The notes under the pieces were generated by a model. It ran no database searches and was not told the origin of the DNA. It saw only the letters and a list, made by a program, of their open reading frames with translations. Shown one piece after another: positions 4,740 to 36,464 of a stretch of DNA of 64,000 bases. Each line of letters starts with the position of its first letter. Positions within the stretch are counted from its first letter, which is position 1. The position numbers were made by a program, and so were the translations under genes. Origin of the DNA: Ostreococcus lucimarinus (lineage: Eukaryota); the NCBI GenBank assembly GCA_000092065.1, contig CP000585.1; one strand, given 5' to 3'.

Positions 4740-5807
4740 ATGATGGTCGGGATGCGATTCGGTTCGACGGAGTTTCGACAAAAGTACGACTTCGTCGCGC
4801 AGTTGACGCCCGAGGACGGGGCGAAGATTTGCCGCCAGGTGAGCTTTTATTTCAGCGACTCCAACATCGGGCGAGACGACTATCTGCTTCGCGAAGTGGT
4901 CAAATCAAAGCGCGAGGGACACGATGGAGCGGTGGAATTGGCGACGATCGCGCGGTTTCAGAAGATGCGAGAGTTGCTTGCGCCGTATGGTGGGTACGAC
5001 AATTTCTCGGCGATGATGCCAAAGGTGGCCGAAGCGCTCTCGCAGTCAGACATCGTGGAGGCGTGCGAAAACGGAACGCGGGTGAAGAGAAAATCTTTGA
5101 CGATCGATGGGAAGGAGCCCGATTTTTCTACGGATGAAGGCATGCTTCAATACCGTCAAGCGATGATGGTTGAGCTCGATAAGCGATACGTTTTTGCGAG
5201 CCCGTTCTCGAGGCACGCGACGATGGATTCGATCCGAGCCTTCTTCGACGGCGTCGGCCAAGTCAAATCGATTCGCCTGCGACGACACACGGCTAGTAAA
5301 GATTTCCGTGGAAGCGTTTTCGTCGAGTTCGCGACGGAGGAAGAGGCGAGACACGTCGCCGCGCGCACTGATTTGGTGCACGAGGGCGCGAAAATTGAGC
5401 TCGCGATGAAGTCTGATTACCTCGAGAAGAAGAAGGCGGAGTCGCTCTTACAAAAGGAGAAGCGCCGGCAAGAAGCCATAGCGCGGGGCCAGGATCCGGA
5501 GAATATCCCGCCCGAACCCGAACCTGTTTACGTGGGCAAAGTTCCTGAAGGCTTCGTTCCCGGCCGAGGCGGCGGACGAGGCGGCGGACGAGGCGGTGGA
5601 CGAGGCGGCGGACGAGGCGGCGGACGAGGCGGCGGACGAGGCGGCGGACGAGGCGGCGATCGAGGTGGCGATTTCGGTCACGATGGTCCCGGTCGGGGTC
5701 CTGGATTCGGGTACGGTGGTCCGGATCGCGGTGCGCCTCGCTTCGGATTCGGCGCTCCCGGTCCCCAACGACCCGGCCCTCCACAGCGATTCGGACGCCC
5801 ATACTGA
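4740..5807 (+). CDS. La protein (La motif + RRM + C-terminal RGG/GGRGG repeat tail)
   Basis: The ORF starts at a true ATG (ATGATGGTC). The La motif is VSFYFSDSNIGRDDYL. The RRM includes RGSVFVEFATEEEARHV. The C-terminus is a (GRGGG)n array followed by Gly/Pro-rich sequence. Confidence 0.8.
   Translation: MMVGMRFGSTEFRQKYDFVAQLTPEDGAKICRQVSFYFSDSNIGRDDYLLREVVKSKREGHDGAVELATIARFQKMRELLAPYGGYDNFSAMMPKVAEALSQSDIVEACENGTRVKRKSLTIDGKEPDFSTDEGMLQYRQAMMVELDKRYVFASPFSRHATMDSIRAFFDGVGQVKSIRLRRHTASKDFRGSVFVEFATEEEARHVAARTDLVHEGAKIELAMKSDYLEKKKAESLLQKEKRRQEAIARGQDPENIPPEPEPVYVGKVPEGFVPGRGGGRGGGRGGGRGGGRGGGRGGGRGGGRGGDRGGDFGHDGPGRGPGFGYGGPDRGAPRFGFGAPGPQRPGPPQRFGRPY
5563..5670 (+). repeat. Perfect 15-bp tandem repeat (ggcggcggacgaggc, about 7 to 8 copies) encoding the GGRGG repeats of the La protein
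   Basis: Direct reading of 5561-5670: cgaggcggcggacgaggcggcggacgaggcggtggacgaggcggcggacgaggc... with a single g-to-t variant. Confidence 0.85.
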
Positions 5808-5928
5808 ACGCGAATGAAATGACGCGAAATGTCGCTTGATGTCCGATTAATGTTTTGCCTAACGAAATGAAAGCTCATGTCTATGATATAATACCGCGCG
5901 TCGCCGCACCACCCGCCAAAAGAATCGA

Positions 5929-6290
5929 TTACTTCATTCTCAACCCGAGGCCCGACATGACCTTGGAGTATTCGTTGAAGTCTCTCTTTTTGAGGTAGTT
6001 TTGCAGGCGGCTACGCTGACCCAAGAGCTTCTTCAACCCACGCTGCGTGGCGTAATCCTTCTTGTTCTTGATCAAGTGCGCGGTGAGCCCTTCGATGCGC
6101 TTGGTGAGGAGCGCGATTTGCACCCCCGAGCTCCCGGTGTCGCTCGCCGACTTTTGGAACTCAGCCATGTCCGCCACCGCCGGGCGCGTGCGCTTATCCG
6201 CGGCGACGACTTGCAACGCGCCGCGTTGGTGCGTTTGCGCCCGTCGCGGAGCGAACGAGCTCGAGGCGTTAGCCTTGGCAGCTGCGCGCG
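5929..6290 (-). CDS. Bacterial-type (organellar) ribosomal protein S15; the 3' exon or mature part, with the initiator probably in an upstream exon
   Basis: DTGSSGVQIALLTKRIEGLTAHLIKNKKDYATQRGLKKLLGQRSRLQNYLKKRDFNEYSKVMSGLGL matches the uS15 signature (...RGLLkmv.qRR.LL.YL...). The track ORF starts at TTG (6216). The frame stays open upstream to about 6294 (LSRAAAKANASSSFAPRRAQTHQRGA, presequence-like) without an ATG. The only in-frame ATG (MAEFQK) would leave no targeting peptide. Confidence 0.65.
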
Positions 6291-6771
6291 AGAGTCAATT
6301 TCGGGTCAGATAAGAGGGTTCTAGGGTCAAATGTACGCCCGCGCGCGACGCACGCGCCCACGCGCGGCCGCCGTCCTCGACGCGCGTCGCGAACGACGCC
6401 GACGTATTTCCACATCCAAATCCATCGCGCGCCGTCGCGCGCGCGCCGTCGCGCGTCGCGCATCACCGCGTCGCGCGCGTCGCATCGCCGCCTCGCCACG
6501 TCGCCATCGCCGATGCGCGCGCGTTCGATCTCGTCGCGCGCGCGCGTCCCGCGCGGCGCGTCCCGCGCGACGCGACGCGACGCTCGAATTTTCTCGCCGT
6601 CGAGACGCACCGATGCGGGTCGTGGAGAGCGTGAACATCGCGCGTCGTGGTGTGCGGCGCGTCGCGTCGCGCCCGCGAGGGTCGGGCGGCAGTCTCGAAA
6701 TGTGAGTCACCACACGGAACACAAAGAGCGCCGAAAAGCGTCCCGCCGCCGCCACTCTTCGACGCGTCGCC

Positions 6772-7362
6772 ATGCGCGCGTCGTCGCGCGCGCCCGCGAC
6801 GCGTTGTCGCGCGCCGACGCGCCTCGTGACGACGCGACGCGCGACGCGCGCGCGCGACGACCGCCGCGCGACGACGCGACGCGCGACGACGACCGCGGAC
6901 GCGGACGAAGAAACCCAAGACGCGCAGGCTCGAAAGATGGCGATCGAATTCGCCGTCATCGCCGACGACACGCGCGCGGTCGAGGTGCAGGTGCTGTCGG
7001 TGGCGAAGAGCGTGTTCTACGCGCGATACGTCGTGCTGGCGACGGCGTTCAATCGACCGCAGATGAACGCGTGCTGCGCGAAGATGCGAGAACTGGCGAA
7101 CGAGGCGTACGGGTTGACGGTGCCGAAGAGCGCGGCGCAGGTGGGGGATTGGGCGTGTTTGGACTGCGCGGACGTCGTCGTGCACGTGTTTTCGCCGAAT
7201 TCGCGAACGCATTACGATTTGGACGGGTTGTATAAGGGCGCGGAGCGCGTTGAGTTGCCGTTCGTGACGGAGACGCGAGGGGGGAGCGAGACGGAGGACG
7301 AATTCGAGCCGTACGACGAAGAAGAAGACGAAGAAGACGACGAATTCGAAGTCTTCGAGTGA
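6772..7362 (+). CDS. Iojap / ribosome silencing factor RsfS family protein with an Arg-rich organellar presequence
   Basis: There is a true ATG at 6772. The C-terminal half (AIEFAVIADDTRAVEVQVLSVAKSVFYARYVVLATAFNRPQMNA...DWACLDCADVVVHVFSPNSRTHYDLDGLY) fits the RsfS/Iojap (DUF143) family. The tail is acidic (EE, DEEEDEEDDEFEVFE). Confidence 0.75.
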   Translation: MRASSRAPATRCRAPTRLVTTRRATRARDDRRATTRRATTTADADEETQDAQARKMAIEFAVIADDTRAVEVQVLSVAKSVFYARYVVLATAFNRPQMNACCAKMRELANEAYGLTVPKSAAQVGDWACLDCADVVVHVFSPNSRTHYDLDGLYKGAERVELPFVTETRGGSETEDEFEPYDEEEDEEDDEFEVFE

Positions 7363-7522
7363 GCGTCGCACGCGATGTAGAGTAGACGTTAAGTAATATT
7401 GATTATCGCGCTTGTAAGTTCACGCGCGGTCGCGCGGGACGAGACGCGGCGCCGTCTCGCGCCGCGCGCCCGTAGACGTCGTCGCGCTCGCGCGCGCGCG
7501 CCGCACAGCGCGCCTCGCGCGT

Positions 7523-7554
<32 letters not shown>

Positions 7555-7556
7555 TC

Positions 7557-8585
7557 ATGTCGATCGACCGCGAGCGCGCCGTCGTCGCCGTCGTCGTCGC
7601 CGCGCTGTTCGCCGCGCACGCGCGCGTCGTCGGTCGCCTCAAATCTCGACTCGCCGCCGCCTCGACCGAAAAGCAGCGCTTGCAATCGATCCTGCGCGTC
7701 CGCGACGTCCCTAAGACCACGGGTATGTTCGCGCCGATCGCGCGCGCGCGCAGTGCGTTTTCTCGACGCAACGGCACGCCGCGACAGGGCGGCGCGCTCG
7801 TGCCTCGGGCGCGGTGCGAGGTAAAGATGGAGGCGCGCCTGCCGCGACACCTGCTGGAAGGCTTGGACGAGTACACGCACTGCTGGGTGATTTACGTGTT
7901 CCACGCGAACACGAATTTAGCGGGGACGAAGACGGGGGGTGCGGCGAAGGGAAAGGTGGCGGTGCCTCGATTGGACGGAAAGCGCGTCGGGGCGCTGGCG
8001 ACGAGGACGCCGCACAGGCCGATTCCAGTCGGGCTGTCCGTCGGGACGGTGGAGAGCGTCGACGCCGAGCGAGGAGTGGTAGTGATAGGAGGGATTGATT
8101 TAGTAGATGGAACGCCGATTTTGGATATAAAGCCGTATGTGCCGTTTTGTGACTCGATCGCGAGCGCGAAGGCGCCGGATTGGGTCGGGAAGGAAGCGGT
8201 CGGGAAGGATGAACCGTTGAAAATTATTCGAGTCGACGTCGCGGAACGCGCCGAGGCGCCGTTGGCGAGTTCATACGCTCGAAGCGCGGCGGCGAAGACG
8301 CTGTATCCCGATGTCAGCGCGTTTGTTGAATTCTGCAAAGAAGTGTTGACGTACGACATTCGTTCCATTCGCGAACGCAACGCAGACGTGGACAAGCGAA
8401 AGTTTGACACGTACAGGGTGATTTTGTGCGACGTGGAGATCGAGTACACCATTAGCGAGGAACGCAAAGTCGAAATTACTGGCGCCAAAGCGGTCCCTAG
8501 AGAGATTTTTGATGATTGGGAGCGCGCGAAAGTCGAGCAGCAGGCTCGTGAGGCGTTGGGAGAGCATCCAAAGCCGAAGCATTAG
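7557..8585 (+). CDS. TsaA/YaeB (TRMO-like) tRNA m6t6A37 methyltransferase family protein
   Basis: There is a true ATG at 7557. The conserved core is HCWVIYVFHAN...LATRTPHRPIPVGLSVGTVESVD...GIDLVDGTPILDIKPYVPF, characteristic of the UPF0066/TsaA fold. The N-terminus has an Arg-rich presequence. Confidence 0.7.
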   Translation: MSIDRERAVVAVVVAALFAAHARVVGRLKSRLAAASTEKQRLQSILRVRDVPKTTGMFAPIARARSAFSRRNGTPRQGGALVPRARCEVKMEARLPRHLLEGLDEYTHCWVIYVFHANTNLAGTKTGGAAKGKVAVPRLDGKRVGALATRTPHRPIPVGLSVGTVESVDAERGVVVIGGIDLVDGTPILDIKPYVPFCDSIASAKAPDWVGKEAVGKDEPLKIIRVDVAERAEAPLASSYARSAAAKTLYPDVSAFVEFCKEVLTYDIRSIRERNADVDKRKFDTYRVILCDVEIEYTISEERKVEITGAKAVPREIFDDWERAKVEQQAREALGEHPKPKH

Positions 8586-8623
8586 CGAGATAGTCATAGC
8601 AGGGCGATTCTTTGTGACAATTT

Positions 8624-10111
8624 CTAGAGTAACATCGTCATCGGATCTTCTAAATAACACTTGAAGGATTGAAGCCACTGCGCCCCCACGGCTCCATCCA
8701 CGACGCGATGATCGCAGCTCAAAGTCGCGCTCATTACCAAGACTTCCTCGTAGCCGCCCTCTGCGTTCTTGACGACTTCCTTTCTAGCTCCGCCGACGGC
8801 GAGGATCGCCGCTTGCGGCGGGTTTACGATCGCAGCGAAGTTCTTCACGCCGAACATGCCGAGGTTGCTAATGGTAAACGTGCCTCCAGTCATGTCCTGG
8901 GGCGTGAGAGAGCCGCTGCGCGCGCGGCCGGCGAGCGACTTGACTTCGGCGCTGATAGACTTCAACCCCAGGCAGCACGCAGATCGCACGATGGGCACCA
9001 TCAGCCCGCGCTCGGTCTGCACCGCTACAGAAATATCAGCTTTTTTGTACTTGCGAATCTTATCGCCCAACCAGCTGGCGTTCACGTCCGGCACCGCGAG
9101 CAACGCCTTGGCGCTCGCCTTGACGATGAAATCGTTCACGCTAATCTTCGCCCCTTCCGCAGCCTTATCATCAGCGAGCTGCTTGTTCAACGTTTCACGA
9201 ATCCCCATCATGTTATCCAAGCGCACGTCTACGGTGAGATAGAAATGCGGCAGTTGCTGCTTGCTTTCCGTCAAGCGCTCCGCGGTGACGCGCTTGATGG
9301 CGCTCACGCTCACGTCTTCGAAATCCGGGAAAAACTTGGACAACGGATGTTCCGCCACAACCGTGTGCGTCACCGCCTCACTCGCGCTCGACGCGCGCGC
9401 CGTGAGCACGTCCTCGGCGATCACGCGCCCGTTCGGCCCACTCCCGCTCACGGTCTCCAATCGCACGCCTCGTTCCTCGGCCAACCGTCTCGCCAGCGGC
9501 GACGCGAACACCCGTTCCCCGCTCGCGCGCGCGCTCATCCGCGCCGTCGCGCGCGTCGACGCCCTCACCACCGGCATCGTCACCGCCGTCTCCACCGCGC
9601 TCTTCGCCGGTTCCGTCGTCACCGTCTCCGTCGCTTTATAATCCTTAAACGCCGCCACCGCGCTCGCCTCCTCGCACATCACGCACACCGGCGTCCCCAC
9701 CTCCACGTCCGTCGCTCCCTCGGGCACCAGGATCGCCGCCAGGTACCCATCATCCGTCGCTTCCATCGCCATCGTCGCCTTATCCGTCTCCACGTCCGCG
9801 ATCGCGTCGCCGGCTTTGATTTCATCGCCGATCGCGCGATGCCACCGCGCGATCCCACCGCGCTCCATCGTCGGCGACAGCGCCGGCATCGGCAGCACGA
9901 CGTGCTCGGGGAGCGTCGACGACGACGACGCGAATCGCGCGCGCGCGGACGCGTCGAGCGCGGCGCGCGCGGCGCGCGCGCGCGAGGACGCGTCGACGGT
10001 CGCGCGCGCGAACGTCGAGGCGCGCGCGCGCGACGACGACGACGACGACGACGACGCCGGCGCGGGCGCGCGCGCGGCGGCGACGACGGCGCGAGCGAGC
10101 GCGCGACGCAT
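8624..10111 (-). CDS. Dihydrolipoamide acetyltransferase (E2 component of pyruvate dehydrogenase complex), mitochondrial-type
   Basis: The lipoyl domain is LPMPALSPTMERGGIARW...IADVETDKATMAMEATDDGYLAAILV. The E3-binding domain is VFASPLARRLAEERGVRLETVSGSGPNGRVIAEDV. The catalytic-domain motif is SCDHRVVDGAVGAQWL. The N-terminus is a Ser/Ala/Arg-rich presequence. Confidence 0.85.
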   Translation of the reverse strand: MRRALARAVVAAARAPAPASSSSSSSSRARASTFARATVDASSRARAARAALDASARARFASSSSTLPEHVVLPMPALSPTMERGGIARWHRAIGDEIKAGDAIADVETDKATMAMEATDDGYLAAILVPEGATDVEVGTPVCVMCEEASAVAAFKDYKATETVTTEPAKSAVETAVTMPVVRASTRATARMSARASGERVFASPLARRLAEERGVRLETVSGSGPNGRVIAEDVLTARASSASEAVTHTVVAEHPLSKFFPDFEDVSVSAIKRVTAERLTESKQQLPHFYLTVDVRLDNMMGIRETLNKQLADDKAAEGAKISVNDFIVKASAKALLAVPDVNASWLGDKIRKYKKADISVAVQTERGLMVPIVRSACCLGLKSISAEVKSLAGRARSGSLTPQDMTGGTFTISNLGMFGVKNFAAIVNPPQAAILAVGGARKEVVKNAEGGYEEVLVMSATLSCDHRVVDGAVGAQWLQSFKCYLEDPMTMLL

Positions 10112-10377
10112 CGCGCGCGCGTCGCGGCGAGCGTCGCTCGGGCGACGCGCGAGGACGTGTGCGGACGACGCGTCGGGCGCGCGTCGCGTCGAGGGCTACT
10201 CCCGGGTGTTTCGGGCGCGCGCGTCGTCGCGCGCCGCGCGTCCGACGGCGCGGCGCGATGATCGATCGAATCTGCGCGAGGAATACGCATCGCTAACTAC
10301 GCTAGAGCTAATCTACGGTCGTCGCGAACGCGCGCGCGTCGCGCGACGATTCGGCGGCGGCGCGCGCCGCGAGCGCG

Positions 10378-10989
10378 CTACGCGTCGGCGACGGCGCGGC
10401 GACCCGGCGGTAACGCCGGTTTCTTCCGCACTATCGGCGGCGCCGGCGGGTCGTCGTTCGCGCGCACGCCGTCACCGTCGCCGTCGCGCGTCCCTCTGGG
10501 AGCCGCCGCCGCGGGCGCCGCGCGAAGCGTCGTCGCCGCCAACCGTCTCGCGACTTCGGACGCCGGCGTCGCCGCCGCGCCCACGCGCACCGTCACCGCC
10601 TCGCTCGGATCGAACTCCACGAATTTCGGCGCCCTCGCCGCGACGTCGGACGTCGACCGCGCGTCGAGGTCGACGCGCGCGTCCCGCGCCGCGCGTTCCC
10701 GCGTCCCGACCGCGTCGCCGCCGCCGCGCGCCGCCGCGCGCACCTCTCCCGCGTTCGCCAGCGCCACCCCACTCGTCGTCCGCGCCAGCGCCGCGCGCGC
10801 GACCGCGACCGTCGCGCCGCGCTCGACGTCCTCGATCGTCGCCACCCCGGTCCAGCGCTCGCGCTCGACGACGACGACCTCACCGTCACCCGTCGCGAGC
10901 CGCAGTTTGAGCGTGCGACTCGCGCGCGCGTCCTCGCGCGCGCGCGCGCCGCGCGCGACGTCGCGCGCGTCCACGACGCGCAGCGCGAC

Positions 10990-11026
<37 letters not shown>

Positions 11027-11049
11027 CGCGCGACGCCCGACGGACGCAT
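10378..11049 (-). CDS. Hypothetical protein (possibly spurious ORF in a GC-rich divergent intergenic region)
   Basis: A 223-aa ORF lies between the E2 start (10111) and the SUN-gene start (11098). It begins with (GD)n and carries one mildly conserved-looking block (KFVEFDPSEAVTVRV). I recognise no family, and the compositional bias here makes any frame look coding. Confidence 0.2.
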
Positions 11050-11097
11050 TGTGCGGCCGACCGACCGACCGACCGACGCGTCACAACGCCGCGCGCG

Positions 11098-11247
11098 ATG
11101 CCCGCACGCGCGCCGGCGAGGACGCGCGCGCCGGCGACGAGCGCGGAGACGCGCGCGAAAAGCGCGACGCGCGCGCGCGGAGACGCGCGCGACACGCGCG
11201 GCGCGGACGCGCGCGATGATGATTTAAACGAAAAAGATGACCGTTCG

Positions 11248-11280
<33 letters not shown>

Positions 11281-14200
11281 TGCGACGACGCGTGGGGCGT
11301 CGCGCGCGGCGAGCGAGACGTGCGCGCGGGAATGATACGCGTGCGGAGCACGGTGCCGCTGATCGTGAGCACGCTGTGCGTGGTGGTGACGGCGCTCATC
11401 GCGGTGTGCGCGCAGAGCTGGCACGTGCGCGAGACGGCGATGCGGTTGGCGAGCGTGCGATTGAGCGCGACGAGCGTGAAGCTCGGACCGACGACGAGAC
11501 GGTTGACAGCGCTCGAGGATGCGGTGAGGAGATTGGAGAGCGAGAAGGCGAGCGTGCGCGCGGTGGATGGGGTGAAGGCGACGGTGGAGGCGGAGCGCGC
11601 GGCGAACGCGGCGAACGCGGCGACGACGACGACGGACGCGAAGGTCGTCAAGACGGAGATGAAGGCGGAGTTGAAATCGGTTTTGGCGCAGATTGATGCG
11701 TTGAGTAAGCGACAAAATAGTTTCGTGACGACCGCGGAGCTTAAGAAGAGCAGTGGCGCTCTCAAGGCGGAGCTCGCGGAACTCGAAAAGACGGCCGCGG
11801 CGCTCGAAAAGAAGCAAGCGAACTTCGCGGCCAAGACGGAGCTCGCGTCGCTCGAGAAGACCACCGCGGCGCTCGACAAGGGACAAGCCAATTTCGTCAC
11901 CAAAGCGCAGCTTCAAAAGGTGAACGTCGCGAACGATCTCGCACTGTCTGCTGAGCGCTTACGAATCGACGACGCCATCAAGGAGGCCAAGTCGCTTCGA
12001 GACGCCATCGACGCCGTATCCAAGAGCTTGGCGCAGATTGATGCGTTGAGTAAGCGACAAAATAGTTTCGTGACGACCGCGGAGCTTAAGAAGAGCAGTG
12101 GCGCTCTCAAGGCGGAGCTCGCGGAACTCGAAAAGACGGCCGCGGCGCTCGAAAAGAAGCAAGCGAACTTCGCGGCCAAGACGGAGCTCGCGTCGCTCGA
12201 GAAGACCACCGCGGCGCTCGACAAGGGACAAGCCAATTTCGTCACCAAAGCGCAGCTTCAAAAGGTGAACGTCGCGAACGATCTCGCACTGTCTGCTGAG
12301 CGCTTACGAATCGACGACGCCATCAAGGAGGCCAAGTCGCTTCGAGACGCCATCGACGCCGTATCCAAGAGCTTGGCGCAGATTGATGCGTTGAGTAAGC
12401 GACAAAATAGTTTCGTGACGACCGCGGAGCTTAAGAAGAGCAGTGGCGCTCTCAAGGCGGAGCTCGCGGAACTCGAAAAGACGGCCGCGGCGCTCGAAAA
12501 GAAGCAAGCGAACTTCGCGGCCAAGACGGAGCTCGCGTCGCTCGAGAAGACCACCGCGGCGCTCGACAAGGGACAAGCCAATTTCGTCACCAAAGCGCAG
12601 CTTCAAAAGGTGAACGTCGCGAACGATCTCGCACTGTCTGCTGAGCGCTTACGAATCGACGACGCCATCAAGGAGGCCAAGTCGCTTCGAGACGCCATCG
12701 ACGCCGTATCCAAGAGCTTGGCGCAGATTGATGCGTTGAGTAAGCGACAAAATAGTTTCGTGACGACCGCGGAGCTTAAGAAGAGCAGTGGCGCTCTCAA
12801 GGCGGAGCTCGCGGAACTCGAAAAGACGGCCGCGGCGCTCGAAAAGAAGCAAGCGAACTTCGCGGCCAAGACGGAGCTCGCGTCGCTCGAGAAGACCACC
12901 GCGGCGCTCGACAAGGGACAAGCCAATTTCGTCACCAAAGCGCAGCTTCAAAAGGTGAACGTCGCGAACGATCTCGCACTGTCTGCTGAGCGCTTACGAA
13001 TCGACGACGCCATCAAGGAGGCCAAGTCGCTTCGAGACGCCATCGACGCCGTATCCAAGAGCCAGGACGTCTTCATCACGAATACTACTCTCCGACGAGT
13101 GGAGTCACAAATCGAAGCGCTGAAGAAGATGCAAGCAAAGAAGGGATTCTTCTCAACACGGCCGAAAGGGCCGGTCGTTTCCGACGAGCAGATTGCGATG
13201 CTCGAGGCCACGGTTGCTACTTTTGCGACACATTTGGCGGATTTGGAAAAGAACCAAGCCGACTTCGTGACCACAGCGCAACTGCAAAAGTTCGAGGGCG
13301 CTTCGGAGGAAATCAAGTCGCTCCAGAGGGAAATTCACGTTGTTTCCAAGAAGCAAGCCAACTACGTCAGCGTGGCGCAATTACAAAAGCTCGAAGTGGT
13401 GACGGATGAAATTAAATCGCTGCAGAGTGAGATTTCGGCGCTCGCTAAGACGCAAGACGAGTTTGCTATTCTCAGCGCGAGTCTTAAGGATGTTGAGAGT
13501 AAGATCGCGGCGTTGGCGGATGGTAAGAAGAAGACCGGGCTCCTCTCTAAGCTTTCGAAGAAGACAGACACCAAGGTCACCAACAAGCAACTTGTTGAGC
13601 TCGAGAACGCTGTCGCGACGTTGGAGAAGACTCAGACGAAATTCGCTTCGCTTGCGAGTTCACAGATCAGCACGTTGGAGTCTACTCTTGATGCGATTTC
13701 GCAGCAGCAATCCAGTGCGCTCACAGCTGCTGATTTGAAGAGTATTCAAAAGGCCATCACGGCGCTGGAGAAGAGTCAGGAAAGTTTCGCGACGACTGCA
13801 CAGCTACAGAAAGTGGATGCATCTCGAGAGATCAAGGCTTTGGAAGAAGCTTTAGCGGAGATTCTACAGAGTCAGCATTCGTTTGCGAACTCGACTGCCG
13901 TCGAAGAGCTTGAGACGAAAGTCATGGCACTCGAAGCTCGACAAAACGAAAAGCGCGGTGGGATGTTCAAGCGAAGCGCGAGCACCGACACCTCTGTCAC
14001 CAATAAGCAACTCAAGGCTTTAGAAGACACCATCGCGGCCCTGACGAAGAGTCAAGCGGACTTCGCCACGGTTACCCAGCTGAAAGAAAGTGCGCAGGCG
14101 CTTTCGCAACAGCAAGCCGGCGCGCTTACGGCGGCTGACTTGAAGGGCATTCAAAAAGCAGTCGCGTCGCTAGAAAAGAGTCAGAACGGTTTCGCGACGA

Positions 14201-16128
14201 CGGCGCAATTACAAAAGCTCGAAGTGGTGACAGATGAAATTAAATCGCTGCAGAGTGAGATTTCGGCGCTCGCTAAGACGCAAGACGAGTTTGCTATTCT
14301 CAGCGCGAGTCTTAAGGATGTTGAGAGTAAGATCGCGGCGTTGGCGGATGGTAAGAAGAAGACCGGGCTCCTCTCTAAGCTTTCGAAGAAGACAGACACC
14401 AAGGTCACCAACAAGCAACTCAAGGCTCTAGAAGACGCCATCGCGGCTCTGACGAAGAGTCAAGCGGACTTCGCCACGGTTACCCAGCTGAAAGAAAGTG
14501 CGCAGGCGCTTTCGCAACAGCAAGCCGGCGCGCTTACGGCGGCTGACTTGAAGGGCATTCAAAAAGCAGTCGCGTCGCTAGAAAAGAGTCAGAACGGTTT
14601 CGCGACGACGGCGCAATTACAAAAGCTCGAAGTGGTGACAGATGAAATTAAATCGCTGCAGAGTGAGATTTCGGCGCTCGCTAAGACGCAAGACGAGTTT
14701 GCTATTCTCAGCGCGAGTCTTAAGGATGTTGAGAGTAAGATCGCGGCGTTGGCGGATGGTAAGAAGAAGACCGGGCTCCTCTCTAAGCTTTCGAAGAAGA
14801 CAGACACCAAGGTCACCAACAAGCAACTCAAGGCTCTAGAAGACGCCATCGCGGCTCTGACGAAGAGTCAAGCGGACTTCGCCACGGTTACCCAGCTGAA
14901 AGAAAGTGCGCAGGCGCTTTCGCAACAGCAAGCCGGCGCGCTTACGGCGGCTGACTTGAAGGGCATTCAAAAAGCAGTCGCGTCGCTAGAAAAGAGTCAG
15001 AACGGTTTCGCGACGACGGCGCAATTACAAAAGCTCGAAGTGGTGACAGATGAAATTAAATCGCTGCAGAGTGAGATTTCGGCGCTCGCTAAGACGCAAG
15101 ACGAGTTTGCTATTCTCAGCGCGAGTCTTAAGGATGTTGAGAGTAAGATCGCGGCGTTGGCGGATGGTAAGAAGAAGACCGGGCTCCTCTCTAAGCTTTC
15201 GAAGAAGACAGACACCAAGGTCACCAACAAGCAACTCAAGGCTCTAGAAGACGCCATCGCGGCTCTGACGAAGAGTCAAGCGGACTTCGCCACGGTTACC
15301 CAGCTGAAAAAGGTTGCCGCCACGTTGGATGCGTTGAAAAACGTGCACGACAATTATGCGACGACGAAACTTGTGAAGAACTTGGAACTCAAGCTGAACC
15401 AGGTGATCAAAACGAGCGGGGGGCTGTCGACGACGCAGACAAATTTGGTGGAGTTAGAGCAAAGAGCGATGGAGCGCGTTGAGAGTTATATTAAAACAAT
15501 CCCGAAAGATACCTCGAGAAAGCTCACGAAACACATCGAGGAGGCTTCGAGTTTGTGGTTTGCGGACAGAACTGGAAGGCAGGACTTCGCGCTCGCTTCA
15601 GGTGGCGGGCGCGTCGTCGGTCACTCTCAGCTTTCGCCGTTTGTAGGCCGTGGCGACGGTCCCATCACGTCGGTGCTTTCGTTCCTTCAATCCGGAGTGC
15701 ATCCGAAGAGCGACGAGTGGTTACTCACGCCGTCTTTGGAGCAACCAGGGGATTGTATCGCGTTGCATTCGTCGACCGGTTATGTTGATGTTCGTTTGCG
15801 TCAGTCTGTGAAAGTGGACGCGGTCACGCTCGAGCACGCGAATAGCTTGAACGCGTACGACTTGCACAGCGCGCCACGAGATGTACAAGTATACGGTTGG
15901 CACGCACGCAAGAAGAGTTGCAAGCATAGCAAACCGCCCAAGTCGTTGATTCCTCTCGGCAACTACACGTACAGTATCAACCGCGGAAGCGTACAAACTT
16001 TCGACGTGGTGTCACCGCAGACCGTCGACCATGTGCGTCTAGTGGTGAAGAACAATCAAGGGCACCAGAAGTGGACGTGCCTGTACCGGTTCCGAGTACA
16101 CGGCGTGCCAGAACGAGTCGAAGCGTGA
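11098..16128 (+). CDS. Giant coiled-coil membrane protein with a C-terminal SUN (Sad1/UNC-84)-like domain; a predicted inner-nuclear-membrane/LINC-type protein
   Basis: This is a single 1676-aa ORF. Its N-terminus is an Arg/Asp-rich low-complexity stretch. A single hydrophobic span (PLIVSTLCVVVTALIAVCA) sits near residue 90. About 1300 aa of heptad-rich sequence rich in Ala, Leu, Lys, Glu and Gln follows, built from tandem repeats. The C-terminal roughly 190 aa are globular and end ...QGHQKWTCLYRFRVHGVPE. This resembles SUN-domain termini (...YRxRVHG) and the architecture resembles SUN proteins. Confidence 0.65.
11683..13062 (+). repeat. 345-bp tandem repeat, 4 nucleotide-identical copies (115-aa coiled-coil unit) inside the SUN-like gene
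   Basis: The string ttggcgcagattgatgcgttgagtaagcgacaaaatag recurs at about 11683, 12028, 12373 and 12718. Three identical 111-aa antisense ORFs spaced exactly 345 bp apart in the track (11913, 12258, 12603) confirm nucleotide identity. The unit encodes AQIDALSKRQNSFVTTAELKK...KEAKSLRDAIDAVSKSL. Confidence 0.9.
13370..15300 (+). repeat. 408-bp tandem repeat: three nucleotide-identical copies plus one diverged leading copy (136-aa coiled-coil unit) inside the SUN-like gene
   Basis: Identical antisense ORFs recur at 14181, 14589 and 14997 (period 408 bp). The unit encodes ...QLQKLEVVTDEIKSLQSEISALAKTQDEFAILSASLKDVESKIAALADGKKKTGLLSKLSKKTDTKVTNKQLKALEDAIAALTKSQADFATVTQLKESAQALSQQQAGALTAADLKGIQKAVASLEKSQNGFATTA. 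A diverged copy starts at about 13370. Confidence 0.9.
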
Positions 16129-16879: not shown

Positions 16880-17762
16880 TCACGCAAAACATTCGAGCGT
16901 CCGTCAGTCTCCCGTACCCACATCGCGTCGCGTTTCGCTCTCAACCGCCCCCGCGACGTCGACGCCGCGCGCGCGCGACGCTCGACCGCCCCCGTCGCTC
17001 GTCCCATCGCCGCCCACGACGCCATCGACCCCACATTCGCGCGCATATCATCCAGCGATAATACACATCCCACGCCCACGCCCCATCGCCTCCCCTCGCG
17101 CGTCGGCGCCCATCGAGCCCTCCCATTTCCAACGCCACAGATCGAGCGCCAACGATCCAACGCGTGCGCGCACGATCAACGCCCTCTCGCGTTCCTCGAT
17201 CACCCGTTCGACCCGATCGCGCGCGCGACGCGCGCGACGAAATCTTCCCGCGCGATTTCCGCCGTCCGAGCCGACGCGCGACGCGCGACGCGCGACGTGG
17301 GCGGCGATTCCGCGCGACAATCCGAATCGCGCGATTATGCGCTGGAATCGTCCATCGTCGATCGTCGTCCGCGTCTCGTCGACGCGTCGCGATCGCGGCG
17401 CGCGCGCGGTATCCGCGGGCGCATCAAAACGCGCGCGCGTACCATGTCGTGTGATTTCGCGAAGTCGCGTCGCGGTGTGCGCGCGCGGGGGCGCGTGGTC
17501 GGAGTGTCGTCACCGCGCGCGCGAAACGATCTGATGGGCGTTTGTGGTATTAAATATGTAAATGTACATTTCAACCAACGCGTCGTTATACATAGAGCTG
17601 TCGTGTGATTTTATATGCACATCGCTCGTGATAAATTTTGTCGGTTTGAACGGTCGACGACGACAGCTCGAACCGCTCGAGCGACGCGCGCCAGAGCGAC
17701 GCGGGCGCGGGCGCGAACGCCAACGAGGAGCGACGGAAGGGAAGACGACGCGCTTTCGGACG

Positions 17763-19781
17763 ATGCCGAAAAAGCCGACGAATCTGAACGCGAAAGGGGA
17801 CAAAAATCTGACGCAAAAGTCTCCGGCGGAATTTTTCCAAGACAACAAAGGCATCGCTGGGTTCGAAAACGCGGGGAAATCGCTGTACACGACGCTTCGA
17901 GAGTTCATCGAGAACGCGTTGGATGCGGCGGAAGCGATCGGGACGCTGCCGGAGATCGATATCGCGGTGGAGGAGGTGTCGGTGTCTCAATACGAGAGCC
18001 TCATCGGGCTCAAGGCGCACGTGCGGTTGGACGACGAGCTGTACGCGGATTTTGAGAGCGATAAGGCGAAGGCAAAGCGGTTGGCGCAAGAGGCGAAAAA
18101 GGCGGCGAAAGCGGCGTCGGCGGCGTCGAAGCGAGGGGGAGGTGGGAAGCGGGATCAGGCGAAATGTTTTTATAAGATTACCGTCAAGGACAACGGGAAG
18201 GGCATGCAACACGAGGACATTCCGAACATGTTGGGACGGGTTTTGAGTGGTACCAAGTACGGGGTGCGACAAACGCGAGGGAAATTCGGACTCGGGTCGA
18301 AAATGGCGTTGATTTGGTCCAAGCAAACCACAGGATTGCCCATTCGCATTCGAAGCGCGTTGCCGAACCAGTCGTTCATCTCCGAGTACGCGTTAGACAT
18401 CGACATCGAGAAGAACGAGCCAAACATTCATAAGGAGGCGAAATTACCCAATGACGATAAGTGGCACGGTGCGGAACTGTCGGTGACCATCGAAGGTAAC
18501 TGGACGACGTACAGGCAATACGTGTTGTCGTATTTGAGACAGCTCGCCATCGTCACGCCGTACGCGCAGTTTCGGTTTAGATTTGTTACCTCTGCGGCGA
18601 CGACGTCGACGGCGAAAGATATCGATATCGTATTTAGACGCCGTACCGATATCATGCCGGCGCTTCCCACGGTGACGAAGCATCACCCTTCGGCGGCGAA
18701 GGAGAACATGCTCTTGATAAAGGATTTACTTTCGCAGACGCGTGAGAAGAATTTGCTCAACTTTTTGCATAAAGAGTTCACGTGCATCAACAAGGACCAT
18801 TCTTCTCGCCTGATTCAAGAACTCGGCTACGGTTTCGATACGGACATGCACCCGTCCGAGGTGACGGATAAGCAAGCGACGAGAATACAGCAGCTTTTGG
18901 CGGACGCGCGCTTCGACGATCCAGACGGCTCGTGCCTTTCGCCGGCGGGCGAATACAACCTGCGTTTAGGCATCATGAAGGAGCTCGGCCCAGAGTGGAT
19001 CGCATCATTTTGCGCTCCTGCTTTAGCTTGCGGTGGACACCCGCTCGTCGTCGAAGCTTGCGTTTCGCTCGGCGGTCGCGAAGTGAAACCGGGATTCAAC
19101 GTGTTTCGCTTCGCAAATAGAATTCCGCTCCTCTTTGAAGGCGGTAACGACGTCGTTACGAGATGCGTGCAGCGCTTGAACTGGAACACGTATAAGATTG
19201 ACAAGAACAACGATAAGATTGGCGTCTTCGTCTCCATCGTGTCCACAAAAATCCCTTTCAAAGGCACGTCCAAGGAGTACATCGGGGATGAAAACAACGA
19301 AATCGCCGACGCCGTCGACAAGGCAATCAAGCAGTGCGCCTTGCAGCTTCGAGGGAAGATTGTCCGCGCGCAAGTGGCGAAAGATCGGAAAGCTCGCAAA
19401 AAGCAACTCGCCAAGTACATTCCTGATGTGGCGCGCGCAGTCTTCGCGATGCTTGCGGCCGCCGCGGACGCGGACGAGCCGCCATCGAAACGCGCTCGCG
19501 TCGGCGCCGCGTTATGGAAGGTGGACGAAAAGTGGGAGACGGACGTTTTGGAGCGGGCGAGAGAAGGTGAAGTGAGTGAAGCCGTGCTCAGGGCAAAGCT
19601 TGAAGAGCACGTGCAACGAAGTGATCACGAACAAGCGCTGGAATTTGCCATGCAAAACAACAAGGATGGCTTAAGCGAACTCATGTACTTGGTGCCCAAG
19701 ACGCCCGAGCACGAGTACCTTCCCGAGATTCGAAGCGGATCGTGTGCGTTTAGATTTCTCAAGGCGGCTGAATTGCGATGA
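17763..19781 (+). CDS. TOP6B: DNA topoisomerase VI subunit B (TOP6B), Bergerat-fold ATPase
   Basis: The start is at MPKKPTNLNAKGD. The ATPase region is SPAEFFQDNKGIAGFENAGKSLYTTLREFIENALDAAE (an ExxNxxD-type ATP-binding motif). Downstream come ...YKITVKDNGKGM and the transducer-domain block FRFANRIPLLFEGGNDV, typical of TopoVI-B. Confidence 0.85.
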   Translation: MPKKPTNLNAKGDKNLTQKSPAEFFQDNKGIAGFENAGKSLYTTLREFIENALDAAEAIGTLPEIDIAVEEVSVSQYESLIGLKAHVRLDDELYADFESDKAKAKRLAQEAKKAAKAASAASKRGGGGKRDQAKCFYKITVKDNGKGMQHEDIPNMLGRVLSGTKYGVRQTRGKFGLGSKMALIWSKQTTGLPIRIRSALPNQSFISEYALDIDIEKNEPNIHKEAKLPNDDKWHGAELSVTIEGNWTTYRQYVLSYLRQLAIVTPYAQFRFRFVTSAATTSTAKDIDIVFRRRTDIMPALPTVTKHHPSAAKENMLLIKDLLSQTREKNLLNFLHKEFTCINKDHSSRLIQELGYGFDTDMHPSEVTDKQATRIQQLLADARFDDPDGSCLSPAGEYNLRLGIMKELGPEWIASFCAPALACGGHPLVVEACVSLGGREVKPGFNVFRFANRIPLLFEGGNDVVTRCVQRLNWNTYKIDKNNDKIGVFVSIVSTKIPFKGTSKEYIGDENNEIADAVDKAIKQCALQLRGKIVRAQVAKDRKARKKQLAKYIPDVARAVFAMLAAAADADEPPSKRARVGAALWKVDEKWETDVLERAREGEVSEAVLRAKLEEHVQRSDHEQALEFAMQNNKDGLSELMYLVPKTPEHEYLPEIRSGSCAFRFLKAAELR

Positions 19782-36006: not shown

Positions 36007-36405
36007 GTGCGCGCTGTGTCCGTATAAAGACGCGCGAAGGACCCATGTGCGCGCTGTGTCCGTATAAAGACGCGCGAAGGACCCATGTGCGCGCTGTGTC
36101 CGTATAAAGACGCGCGAAGGACCCATGTGCGCGCTGTGTCCGTATAAAGACGCGCGAAGGACCCATGTGCGCGCTGTGTCCGTATAAAGACGCGCGAAGG
36201 CCCGTGTGCGCGCTGTGTCCGTATAAAGACGCGCGAAGGCCCGTGTGCGCGCTGTGTCCGTATAAAGACGCGCGAAGGACCCATGTGCGCGCTGTGTCCG
36301 TATAAAGACGCGCGAAGGCCCGTGTGCGCGCTGTGTCCGTATAAAGACGCGCGAAGGCCCGTGTGCGCGCTGTGTCCGTATAAAGACGCGCGAAGGCCCG
36401 TGTGC
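36007..36405 (+). repeat. 40-bp minisatellite, about 10 tandem copies in two variants (40-bp ...gaaggacccatgt... and 39-bp ...gaaggcccgtgt...); each copy contains TATAAAG
   Basis: Direct reading: gtgcgcgctgtgtccgtataaagacgcgcgaaggacccat repeats head-to-tail from 36007. Copies 5, 6, 8, 9 and 10 carry the ggcccgtg variant. The array ends about 60 bp before the ATG of the downstream + gene. It sits in the 826-bp divergent intergenic region between PP2C (-) and the TPR-J-GlcNAcT gene (+). Confidence 0.9.
36007..36405 (+). promoter_or_regulatory. Array of canonical TATA-box motifs (TATAAAG, + orientation) upstream of the gene starting at 36465
   Basis: Each minisatellite unit carries ccgTATAAAGacg. 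The most proximal copy is about 90 bp upstream of the ATG at 36465. Whether these function as TATA boxes is an inference. Confidence 0.4.
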
Positions 36406-36464
36406 GACGAACGTCGACCGGCGCGAGCGTTTCGCGAGCGTTTCGAACGCCAGACGACGACGCC

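Follow-up and report, generated by a model that had tools for sequence, protein, structure and literature searches.

Identical tandem repeats in the predicted luminal stalk of a SUN-domain protein from Ostreococcus lucimarinus

This report concerns a single gene in a 64-kb stretch of the genome of Ostreococcus lucimarinus (64,000 nucleotides of contig CP000585.1, assembly GCA_000092065.1; 'the window', below), much of whose coding sequence consists of two head-to-tail arrays of long repeats, the copies of which are identical at the level of the DNA. The gene occupies positions 11098–16128 on the plus strand and, judged by its translation, is that of a C-terminal SUN-domain protein: a member of the Sad1/UNC-84 family and of the LINC complex, which links the nucleoskeleton to the cytoskeleton. 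Its features are the following, with amino acid (aa) positions where these are useful:

11098–16128, plus strand: complete coding sequence, 1676 aa plus stop, a single open reading frame (ORF) that needs no intron
11098–11352, plus strand: N-terminal low-complexity domain, aa 1–85, Arg/Ala-rich with a run of Asp (from the translation)
11353–11409, plus strand: single predicted transmembrane helix, aa 86–104, VPLIVSTLCVVVTALIAVC (from Kyte–Doolittle hydropathy)
11683–13062, plus strand: array 1, a 345-bp/115-aa unit present in 4.00 copies, 100% identical, with three short motifs per unit
13374–13592, plus strand: 219-bp fragment of a paralogous copy, copy A (itself aa 710–845), 99.5% identity
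13633–14040, plus strand: copy B of the 408-bp family, diverged in sequence, aa 846–981 (from protein and DNA comparison)
14041–15309, plus strand: array 2, a 408-bp/136-aa unit present in 3.11 copies, 100% identical (from the lag test described below)
15310–15714, plus strand: unique distal stalk and the helix before the SUN domain, aa 1405–1539 (from the translation)
15715–16107, plus strand: Sad1/UNC (SUN) domain, aa 1540–1670 (from Pfam PF07738 and the SUN1/SUN2 structures in the PDB)
11913–12938, minus strand: antisense ORFs, 111 and 100 aa long and recurring every 345 bp, by-products of the repeat (from the ORF list)

The Pfam family Sad1_UNC (PF07738) matches aa 1540–1670 of the 1676 with E = 1.1e-25 and 90.7 bits, against a cut-off of 22, and the last ~200 residues—the SUN domain together with the helix that precedes it—align to solved structures of human SUN1 and SUN2 (5ywz, 4dxt, 3unp) with E = 2e-20. 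The aligned elements include the motifs DFALxSGG, PG[ND]C, SAP[KR]D and TC[LI]YRFRVHG, a conserved pair of cysteines and, ahead of the domain, KHIEEASSLWFADRTG, which falls on the helix preceding the SUN domain in the solved proteins. The protein has one hydrophobic segment, aa 86–104, with a 19-residue Kyte–Doolittle mean of 2.65; outside the region that holds this helix (aa ~61–125), the next-highest mean is 1.01. A C-terminal SUN domain, similarity to SUN1 and SUN2, and a single transmembrane segment placed before the stalk are what sequence can reveal of a SUN protein, and all three are present here. The residues ahead of the transmembrane helix (17 Lys plus Arg and 24 Asp plus Glu in aa 1–85) are predicted to be nucleoplasmic, a topology that we take from the SUN family. 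The luminal stalk that follows, some 1360 residues long, is rich in Ala, Lys, Leu, Thr, Ser, Glu and Gln and nearly free of proline (4 in 1370 residues), and the two arrays make up about half of it. Further weak Pfam matches within the stalk (Fer2_2, DUF5932 and others) lie under threshold and were dismissed as coiled-coil noise. Both ends of the protein, MPARAP… and …RVEA, are common to independent gene calls from the same species (P0102) and from a sister species (P0103).

To delimit the arrays, Tandem Repeats Finder (TRF) was applied to the whole window together with a base-by-base lag test, which scores the match of a sequence to itself at a fixed offset. For the first array the two agree. 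TRF reports a period of 345, 4.0 copies, 100% matches and no indels over 11683–13062, and at a lag of 345 the self-match runs uninterrupted for 1035 bases, or 4.00 identical copies, which is what the original prediction had claimed for this family. It had also claimed about four identical copies of 408 bp, and of this the identical, in-frame array stands and the number does not. At a lag of 408 the self-match is uninterrupted for 861 bases within 14041–15309, equivalent to 3.11 exact copies, and the rest of the family consists of a fragment and a diverged copy. The fragment, 219 bp at 13374–13592, matches a portion of the 408-bp unit at 99.5% identity, and its nearest counterpart lies 828 bp downstream. 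The diverged copy, at ~13633–14040, is 78–93% identical in pieces at the DNA level and 52% identical to the amplified unit at the protein level. TRF calls one 408-bp period across all of these (13374–15309; 4.7 copies, matches of just 83%, indels 4%). Because the self-matches run for 861–1035 bases, a chance origin is excluded. Both unit lengths are divisible by 3, both arrays are in frame within the ORF, and TRF found no other long-period perfect array in the window.

The arrays cast a shadow on the opposite strand. Identical antisense ORFs do recur at exact 345- and 408-bp spacing, as had been noticed at the outset: those of 111 and 100 aa every 345 bp, and others of 86 and 69 aa every 408 bp, three of each, inside 14181–15257. 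As candidate genes we rejected them; they are mechanical by-products of a repeating, stop-poor sequence. The window has just one further strong tandem array, a minisatellite with a 40-bp unit at 36007–36406 (10.1 copies, 98% identity), for which TRF scores a 118-bp period too. It stops at the mechanical start of an ORF, 36402–39122, that has a GlcNAc glycosyltransferase domain (PF11397).

Perfect repeats that exceed the typical read length cannot be placed uniquely, and the original prediction had cautioned that the assembled copy number might be wrong. The caution was justified. Many metagenome contigs match the window at 99.4–100% identity, and the short-read assemblies collapse the 345-bp array to one or two copies, insert a gap of Ns, or end in the 408-bp family. 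One copy only of the 345-bp unit is found in contigs L008, L009 and L013–L019. The last seven terminate shortly after that copy, within the 408-bp family. L008 (6001–8760) and L009 (5583–8342), from JGI metagenomes, encode an apparently complete, in-frame SUN protein of 919 aa (P0102), which is short because the 345-bp array has collapsed to one copy. Two perfect 345-bp copies occur in the ENA scaffold L004 and in the JGI contig L020, the latter stopping 126 bp into the exact 408-bp array. The ENA scaffolds L010–L012 have one 345-bp junction and then an N gap, and a Logan contig, L001, starts 30 bp before the exact 408-bp array ends. The head-to-tail junction of the 345-bp unit is thus seen independently in L004, L010–L012 and L020, with units 99.7–100% identical to those of the window. 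The head-to-tail arrangement of this unit is real in natural populations, at least two perfect tandem copies of it are confirmed, and copies of the 345- and 408-bp units alike resemble one another closely enough to defeat short-read assembly.

These contigs bear also on a more sceptical account, according to which the arrays exist, but their copy number, their perfect identity, or both, stem from assembly and finishing: from mis-joining, or from homogenization of the consensus. That assemblies of the same species show one copy, two copies or an N gap at the 345-bp array, and ends or gaps in the 408-bp family, is in keeping with it. So is the JGI contig P0052, in which neighboring 136-aa copies differ by a Glu/Lys exchange; because of this difference, perfect identity among the 136-aa copies does not hold in some populations. 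Diverged copies would tend to be resolved by short-read assemblers, however, rather than collapsed, and at least two perfect 345-bp copies have been confirmed independently. The window, moreover, matches the CCE9901 reference, which we take to be a finished Sanger assembly with clone-size constraints. The phenomenon recurs, too, in three species and with three sequencing technologies, including a long-read contig from the sister species that contains five exact copies of a 516-bp unit. We regard artefact as an improbable explanation of what is seen here. The copy numbers found across assemblies (1, 2 or 4 for the 345-bp array in O. lucimarinus; 2, 3 or 5 in the sister species) may reflect polymorphism. 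We did not accept them as decisive, because de Bruijn-graph collapse would account for the low values equally well. A practical lesson can be drawn: short-read assembly and annotation are easily misled at this locus, and perfect coding repeats of this kind silently shorten the proteins of metagenome catalogues. The 'complete' versions found there are 919 aa long in O. lucimarinus (P0102), about half the true length, and 1060 aa long in the sister species (P0103, from ENA).

The same gene has behaved in the same way in other Ostreococcus lineages, with different material. In the sister species, whose housekeeping proteins are ~80% identical to those of O. lucimarinus, the SUN gene contains exact units of 201 and 516 bp. 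In a long-read, pilon-polished ENA contig (L007) these number 5 and ~5, respectively; in a 1400-aa protein model (P0059), 3 and 3.2; and in a model from a short-read contig (P0103), 2 and ~1.3. TRF found no arrays in a further sister-species scaffold, L005, where N gaps stand in their place. The SUN gene of O. tauri has a 552-bp unit in ~3 near-exact copies. TRF was run with a period ceiling of 500 bp, and the 516- and 552-bp units escaped it and were recovered by the lag scan instead. Each of the five long units (345, 408, 201, 516 and 552 bp) has a length divisible by 3. Copy A of O. lucimarinus, which is not amplified, corresponds to the unit that the sister species has amplified (67% aa identity). 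O. lucimarinus has amplified copy C, which is paralogous to copy A (67%) and shares only 51% identity with the sister unit. At 28% identity, the 115-aa unit has little in common with the 67-aa unit of the sister species beyond a short motif. Because each lineage has amplified different units of the same stalk, the amplifications are independent, recurrent and lineage-specific.

The stalk changes much faster than the head. Between O. lucimarinus and the sister species the stalk is 45% identical and the head 77%; between O. lucimarinus and O. tauri the figures are 31% and 74%. Total lengths among the related SUN proteins are 632, 877, 1067, 1676 and at least ~1900 aa. Going by such alignments, it is in the stalk that the protein evolves fast and varies in length, while it is otherwise conserved. 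The stalk is also rare: only 8 of 1.84 billion representative proteins match one non-redundant segment of the stalk, and five of these eight are themselves SUN proteins, four by Pfam scan (P0102, P0103, P0104 and P0106) and one by its precomputed PF07738 annotation (P0004). The very long protein P0105 (4613 aa) was hit by the stalk query over 16 separate stretches, at 26% identity (E = 2.7e-9); the stalk motif is missing from it, and the match may be an unrelated coiled-coil similarity.

Individual records of these genes have peculiarities of their own. In the long-read contig L007, the SUN gene of the sister species (5230–11096) is broken into three gene calls, and two of its 516-bp copies, at 7312 and 8355, are spaced by 2 x 516 + 11, that is, 11 bp out of step; this is probably a residual long-read indel error within the array. 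In O. tauri, the SUN gene (L006, CAID01000005.2) contains a perfect 193-bp tandem duplication at 6858–7243, which is not a multiple of 3, and an annotated 49-nt 'intron' at 7035–7083 (GC…AG) spans the duplication junction and restores the frame. This 'intron' looks like an annotation patch, placed over either an assembly error or a real frame-breaking duplication.

Recent expansion or ongoing homogenization had been among the explanations offered at the outset for the identity of the copies, and that remains the natural reading, two other Ostreococcus lineages having amplified different units of the same stalk. Within the genome the copies are 100% identical, as against 51–67% protein identity to the sister-species unit. 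The array is perfect while the flanks of different environmental genotypes differ by 0.06–0.5%, and for this reason the last round of amplification or homogenization would seem to be recent on the scale of within-species divergence. With a mutation rate of ~5e-10 per site per generation, which we assume for Ostreococcus, it would take about a million generations for a first difference to appear in the 1380-bp array.

Beneath the long units lies a shorter element, the motif L-x-K-x-Q-x-x-[FY]-[AV]-[TS]-x-x-x-L, which sits within a hydrophobic core of heptads. In the 1676-aa protein the loose pattern [KRH]-x-[QH]-x-x-[FY] occurs 28 times, and a stricter form 25 times. The 115-aa and the 136-aa units hold three motifs each, which makes either one a higher-order repeat of an older module; in each 136-aa unit, two of the motifs read [FY][AV]T, one is a variant (TQDEFAI), and a Gly/Lys-rich putative hinge is present besides. 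The stricter motif was found in all Ostreococcus-type SUN stalks tested, and was missing from the five other SUN proteins tested, four of them from plants and one from a fish.

The register of the motif was profiled from 52 distinct [FY][AV][TS] instances in six orthologues, the unselected flanks being tabulated. Upstream, a hydrophobic residue (Leu, Ile, Val, Met or Phe) is present at positions –14, –11, –7 and –4 in 77–87% of instances. Position 0 is Gln in 62%, and +3 is aromatic. Downstream, hydrophobic residues return at +9 (88%), +12 (77%), +16 (56%) and +19 (52%), and occupy +7 and +10, where an unbroken heptad would have them, in just 10% and 6%. Because +9 and +12 are filled and +7 and +10 depleted, the core runs a-d-a-d-a and then jumps nine residues to the next a. 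Such steps have a precedent. In trimeric coiled coils, the insertion of two residues forces three residues out of the helix to form a beta-layer, the first of which (b1) is hydrophobic and the second (b2) small, Ala or Val, and one family has [aliphatic]-A-T-K-[polar]-[DE] as its consensus (Hartmann et al. 2016, PMC4786415). The register of the Ostreococcus motif is that of beta-layers, an a-b-c-b1-b2-b3-e-f-g nonad in a heptad background; [FY]-[AV]-[TS] fits the rule for b1 and b2 but was itself the search pattern, and the K-polar-D/E flank is not conserved. We propose as a hypothesis that the nine-residue step of the motif is a beta-layer.

Structure prediction gives this some encouragement, of a guarded kind. 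AlphaFold2 models of the monomer reached a predicted local distance difference test (pLDDT) score of 51 with a 12-sequence alignment and 63 in single-sequence mode, and within these low-confidence models the helix breaks at SQADFAT, SQNGFAT, HDNYAT and all four [SN]FVT sites, and does not break at the variants that lack Thr, TQDEFAI and ANFAAK. The 136-aa unit contains, in addition, a Gly/Lys-rich segment, GKKKTGLLSKLSKKTDTKV, that is predicted to be non-helical and has related segments in orthologues, such as KGSKVAGLFKRDAD and TKSSGYFKRATD. A second conserved element was noticed at aa 1349–1380 (~nt 15142–15237), once per 136-aa unit and in all of the Ostreococcus-type stalks inspected: basic, Gly-containing and predicted to be non-helical, with the form K-K-x-G-[LF]-[LF]-x-K…D-T-x-V-[ST]-x-K-Q-L-x-A-L-E. 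It could be a hinge, or a segment that faces the membrane.

How, then, is the stalk built? Each unit had been described as a complete coiled-coil module, in a host gene that was not then recognized as that of a SUN-domain protein. The units are in frame and have a heptad core, and to that extent the description fits; the nine-residue steps at the motifs and the non-helical Gly/Lys-rich segment of the 136-aa unit mean that they are not simple modules. One might go further, and doubt that a coiled-coil rod exists at all. The stalk could consist instead of short helices folded into compact, spectrin-like bundles, or be a flexible or disordered luminal tether, in which case additional copies would alter its bulk or valency. 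The AlphaFold2 helices, at low confidence, are 15–55 residues long with breaks between them, the hydrophobic periodicity obtained by Fourier analysis is 3.3 instead of 3.5, and no solved structure resembles the repeats: a sequence search of the PDB with the 345-bp array returned as its sole match a meaningless leucine-rich repeat (E = 0.04). Against bundles or tethers stand the strict a/d core, kept over at least four heptad positions before the motif and four after it in the 52 distinct instances; the near absence of proline; and the fact that in solved homologues the part of the SUN stalk that adjoins the head is a trimeric coiled coil. A stalk without a rod seems to us an outside chance. 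To judge from these patterns, we take the stalk to be a coiled coil in segments, probably trimeric, which nonad steps interrupt at regular intervals.

The original prediction had gone on to suggest a use for such modularity. Each unit, it calculated, would add about 17 nm (115 aa) or 20 nm (136 aa) to a rod, so that a change in copy number would alter rod length in quantized steps, and the stalk would be a potentially tunable spacer. As arithmetic for a continuous helix these figures are correct. By the same arithmetic the whole luminal stalk, if helical and fully extended, would measure ~202 nm, and here the difficulty begins. Cryo-tomography of O. tauri places the nuclear membranes 18–100 nm apart, with gaps in the envelope that are hundreds of nanometers wide. 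The notion of a ruler has been published for SUN1, SUN2 and UNC-84, yet when UNC-84 of C. elegans was shortened by 300 stalk residues, the envelope did not narrow. A stalk of ~200 nm set against a spacing of 18–100 nm, together with this truncation, makes a ruler that stands perpendicular to the membranes unlikely, and the 'tunable spacer' finds no support.

The stronger version, in which selection sets the copy number in steps of 17–20 nm, does have attractions. In-frame units add whole structural segments, related lineages differ widely in stalk length (632 to at least ~1900 aa in total), and the concept has been put forward for other SUN proteins, as just noted. The extended stalk, however, is 2–10 times as long as the membrane spacing of O. 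tauri. Length need not become reach, either, because the 136-aa unit holds a predicted non-helical hinge that would uncouple the one from the other. We think selection of this kind improbable. By analogy with what is known of the envelope and of UNC-84, it is more likely that the stalk is bent at its hinges, that it runs at an angle or along the lumen, or that it enters the endoplasmic reticulum (ER) that is continuous with the outer membrane; and its length is most likely tolerated, rather than tuned as a strict ruler.

Put together, these observations suggest the following history. The basic element would be a lineage-specific short motif within a heptad core. Groups of three such motifs would build the higher-order units of 115 and 136 aa, and these would lately have been amplified head to tail to give the 4 and 3.1 perfect copies found here, most likely, we infer, through unequal recombination among identical units or through slippage between them during replication, processes that would also keep the arrays uniform. 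In the sister lineages the same process would have acted independently upon different units. Each motif would contribute a nine-residue step, possibly a beta-layer, and the Gly/Lys-rich segments would serve as hinges, such that changes in copy number add or remove whole segments and leave the reading frame and the SUN head intact. This joint reading—the luminal stalk of a SUN/LINC protein, assembled hierarchically from motif-based units that were recently amplified, and forming a segmented trimeric coiled coil whose length is tolerated—has in our estimation a probability of roughly 0.62. Several points count against it. The copy numbers of 4 and 3.11 come from one assembly, the short-read assemblies all collapsing or breaking, and in P0052 neighboring 136-aa copies differ by Glu/Lys, as noted above. 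The search pattern itself fixed positions +3 to +5 of the motif; both AlphaFold2 models are low-confidence monomers, and the trimer and the beta-layers are inferred; and a hydrophobic periodicity of ~3.3, not 3.5, fits an interrupted coiled coil without proving one.

A bolder proposal can be made, and we make it tentatively, thinking it more apt to be wrong than right. It is that the Ostreococcus stalk is of a type undescribed for LINC proteins: a trimeric alpha/beta coiled coil with beta-layers at K-x-Q-x-x-[FY]-[AV]-T and hinges between, whose units are continually expanded and replaced by unequal recombination, giving a roughly threefold variation in length among close relatives and, here, some 200 nm of stalk in a cell of ~1 micrometer. 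Such a stalk could not act as a perpendicular ruler; it might instead run along the lumen, form a lattice, or enter ER sheets continuous with the unusually open envelope.

The surroundings of the gene are those expected of O. lucimarinus. Translations from the window are 100% identical to three proteins of strain CCE9901, ABO96317.1 (S15), ABO96318.1 (E2) and ABO96320.1 (proteasome); the window is gene-dense, and the ORFs that we examined require no introns. The gene order S15–RsfS–TrmO–E2–x–SUN–EF hand–TopoVIB–proteasome is kept in O. tauri, where the orthologue of the SUN protein (CEF98022.1, 1067 aa) is annotated 'Sad1/UNC-like, C-terminal'. In O. lucimarinus itself the protein has apparently been passed over. 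Exact look-up of the 1676-aa product found no record; no O. lucimarinus entry from NCBI is among 29 homologues of its C-terminal part; and the 90% cluster of that part, all 25 members of which were read, consists of ENA, JGI and Logan sequences only. Between ABO96318 (E2) and ABO96320 (proteasome) there is accession room for one gene, against the four that the window has there. The proteins deposited in GenBank for O. lucimarinus CCE9901 thus seem not to include the SUN protein.

Next to the SUN gene, on the minus strand at 10378–11049, is an ORF of 223 aa that has no Pfam match. It is among the gene calls of many metagenome contigs, and O. tauri has a counterpart in the equivalent position. 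Only 48 bp separate its ATG from that of the SUN gene, making the two a divergent pair. The interval 10001–11000 has a G+C content of 78% and is packed with CG-rich short repeats. Two genes downstream of SUN, at 17562–19781, is a homologue of topoisomerase VI subunit B, an enzyme of the meiosis/endoreduplication type in plants; the synteny here is conserved across Ostreococcus.

Searches of the full-text literature found no description of these repeats, nor of a SUN stalk from Ostreococcus; a survey of SUN genes in plants includes O. lucimarinus for gene counts and transmembrane segments only. Perfect tandem repeats in coding sequence are ordinary enough in themselves, and what is of moderate interest is their setting: a LINC protein with a stalk that changes rapidly in length and greatly exceeds the lumen, in an organism that lends itself to tomography of whole cells. 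How the nuclear membranes keep their distance, and whether the length of the SUN stalk matters, are open questions in the LINC field, and Ostreococcus supplies a natural series of one orthologous SUN protein whose stalks measure anything from a few hundred residues to considerably more than a thousand. It is, besides, the smallest free-living eukaryote, and cryo-tomography has captured the whole of its nuclear envelope, which is unusually open. Should the copy numbers prove real and variable, the ruler idea could be tested directly, in modular steps, with strains or engineered lines.

The overall architecture is a familiar one. Human SUN1 and SUN2, UNC-84 of C. elegans, and SUN1 and SUN2 of plants all have an N-terminal nucleoplasmic part, one transmembrane helix, a helical luminal stalk, and a C-terminal Sad1/UNC domain, and the protein described here is laid out in the same way, with a stalk that is predicted to be helical. 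Its closest named relatives outside the genus are plant SUN1 and SUN2, at 36–43% identity. In its proportions it departs from described SUN proteins at both ends of the membrane helix: the nucleoplasmic part is very short, 85 residues, and the stalk is ~1360 residues long, whereas plant SUN1 and SUN2 amount to ~450–500 aa in total and the mammalian stalk is modeled as a rod of ~45 nm. About half of this stalk, unlike that of SUN proteins described elsewhere, consists of tandem repeats perfect at the DNA level, and its nonad-register motif is lineage-specific with respect to the plant and animal SUN proteins tested. A further difference lies in the head. SUN2 has a cysteine that forms a disulfide to KASH, and in the alignment with the SUN1 and SUN2 structures no cysteine of the present protein falls on it.

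For the arrays themselves, parallels can be drawn with proteins on the outside of the cell. The FLO adhesins of yeast and the M proteins of streptococci contain in-frame coding repeats of variable copy number, under selection by host or environment. Like them, the Ostreococcus stalk is made of long, near-perfect, head-to-tail units in frame, forms the extended part of a membrane-anchored protein, and differs between close relatives. They are proteins of the cell surface, however, and the SUN protein is an internal one, of the nuclear envelope.

For the motif, the nearest likeness is to the beta-layer coiled coils of Actinobacillus OMP100, Thermosinus Tcar0761 and the stalks of trimeric autotransporter adhesins (PMC4786415), which have the same two-residue insertion register. 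The resemblance, which is one of sequence register only, extends to a host family that is trimeric and, in the residues that the search pattern had fixed, to a hydrophobic b1, Ala or Val at b2 and frequent Thr at b3. It stops short at b1 itself, which is aromatic here (Phe or Tyr) rather than aliphatic, and at the residues that follow, which are T, A or Q, not K-polar-D/E. The cases of beta-layers described are from prokaryotic, phage or organellar proteins (PMC4786415). If the Ostreococcus motif does form beta-layers, it would extend this element, known mainly from prokaryotes and phage fibres, to a eukaryotic protein of the nuclear envelope.

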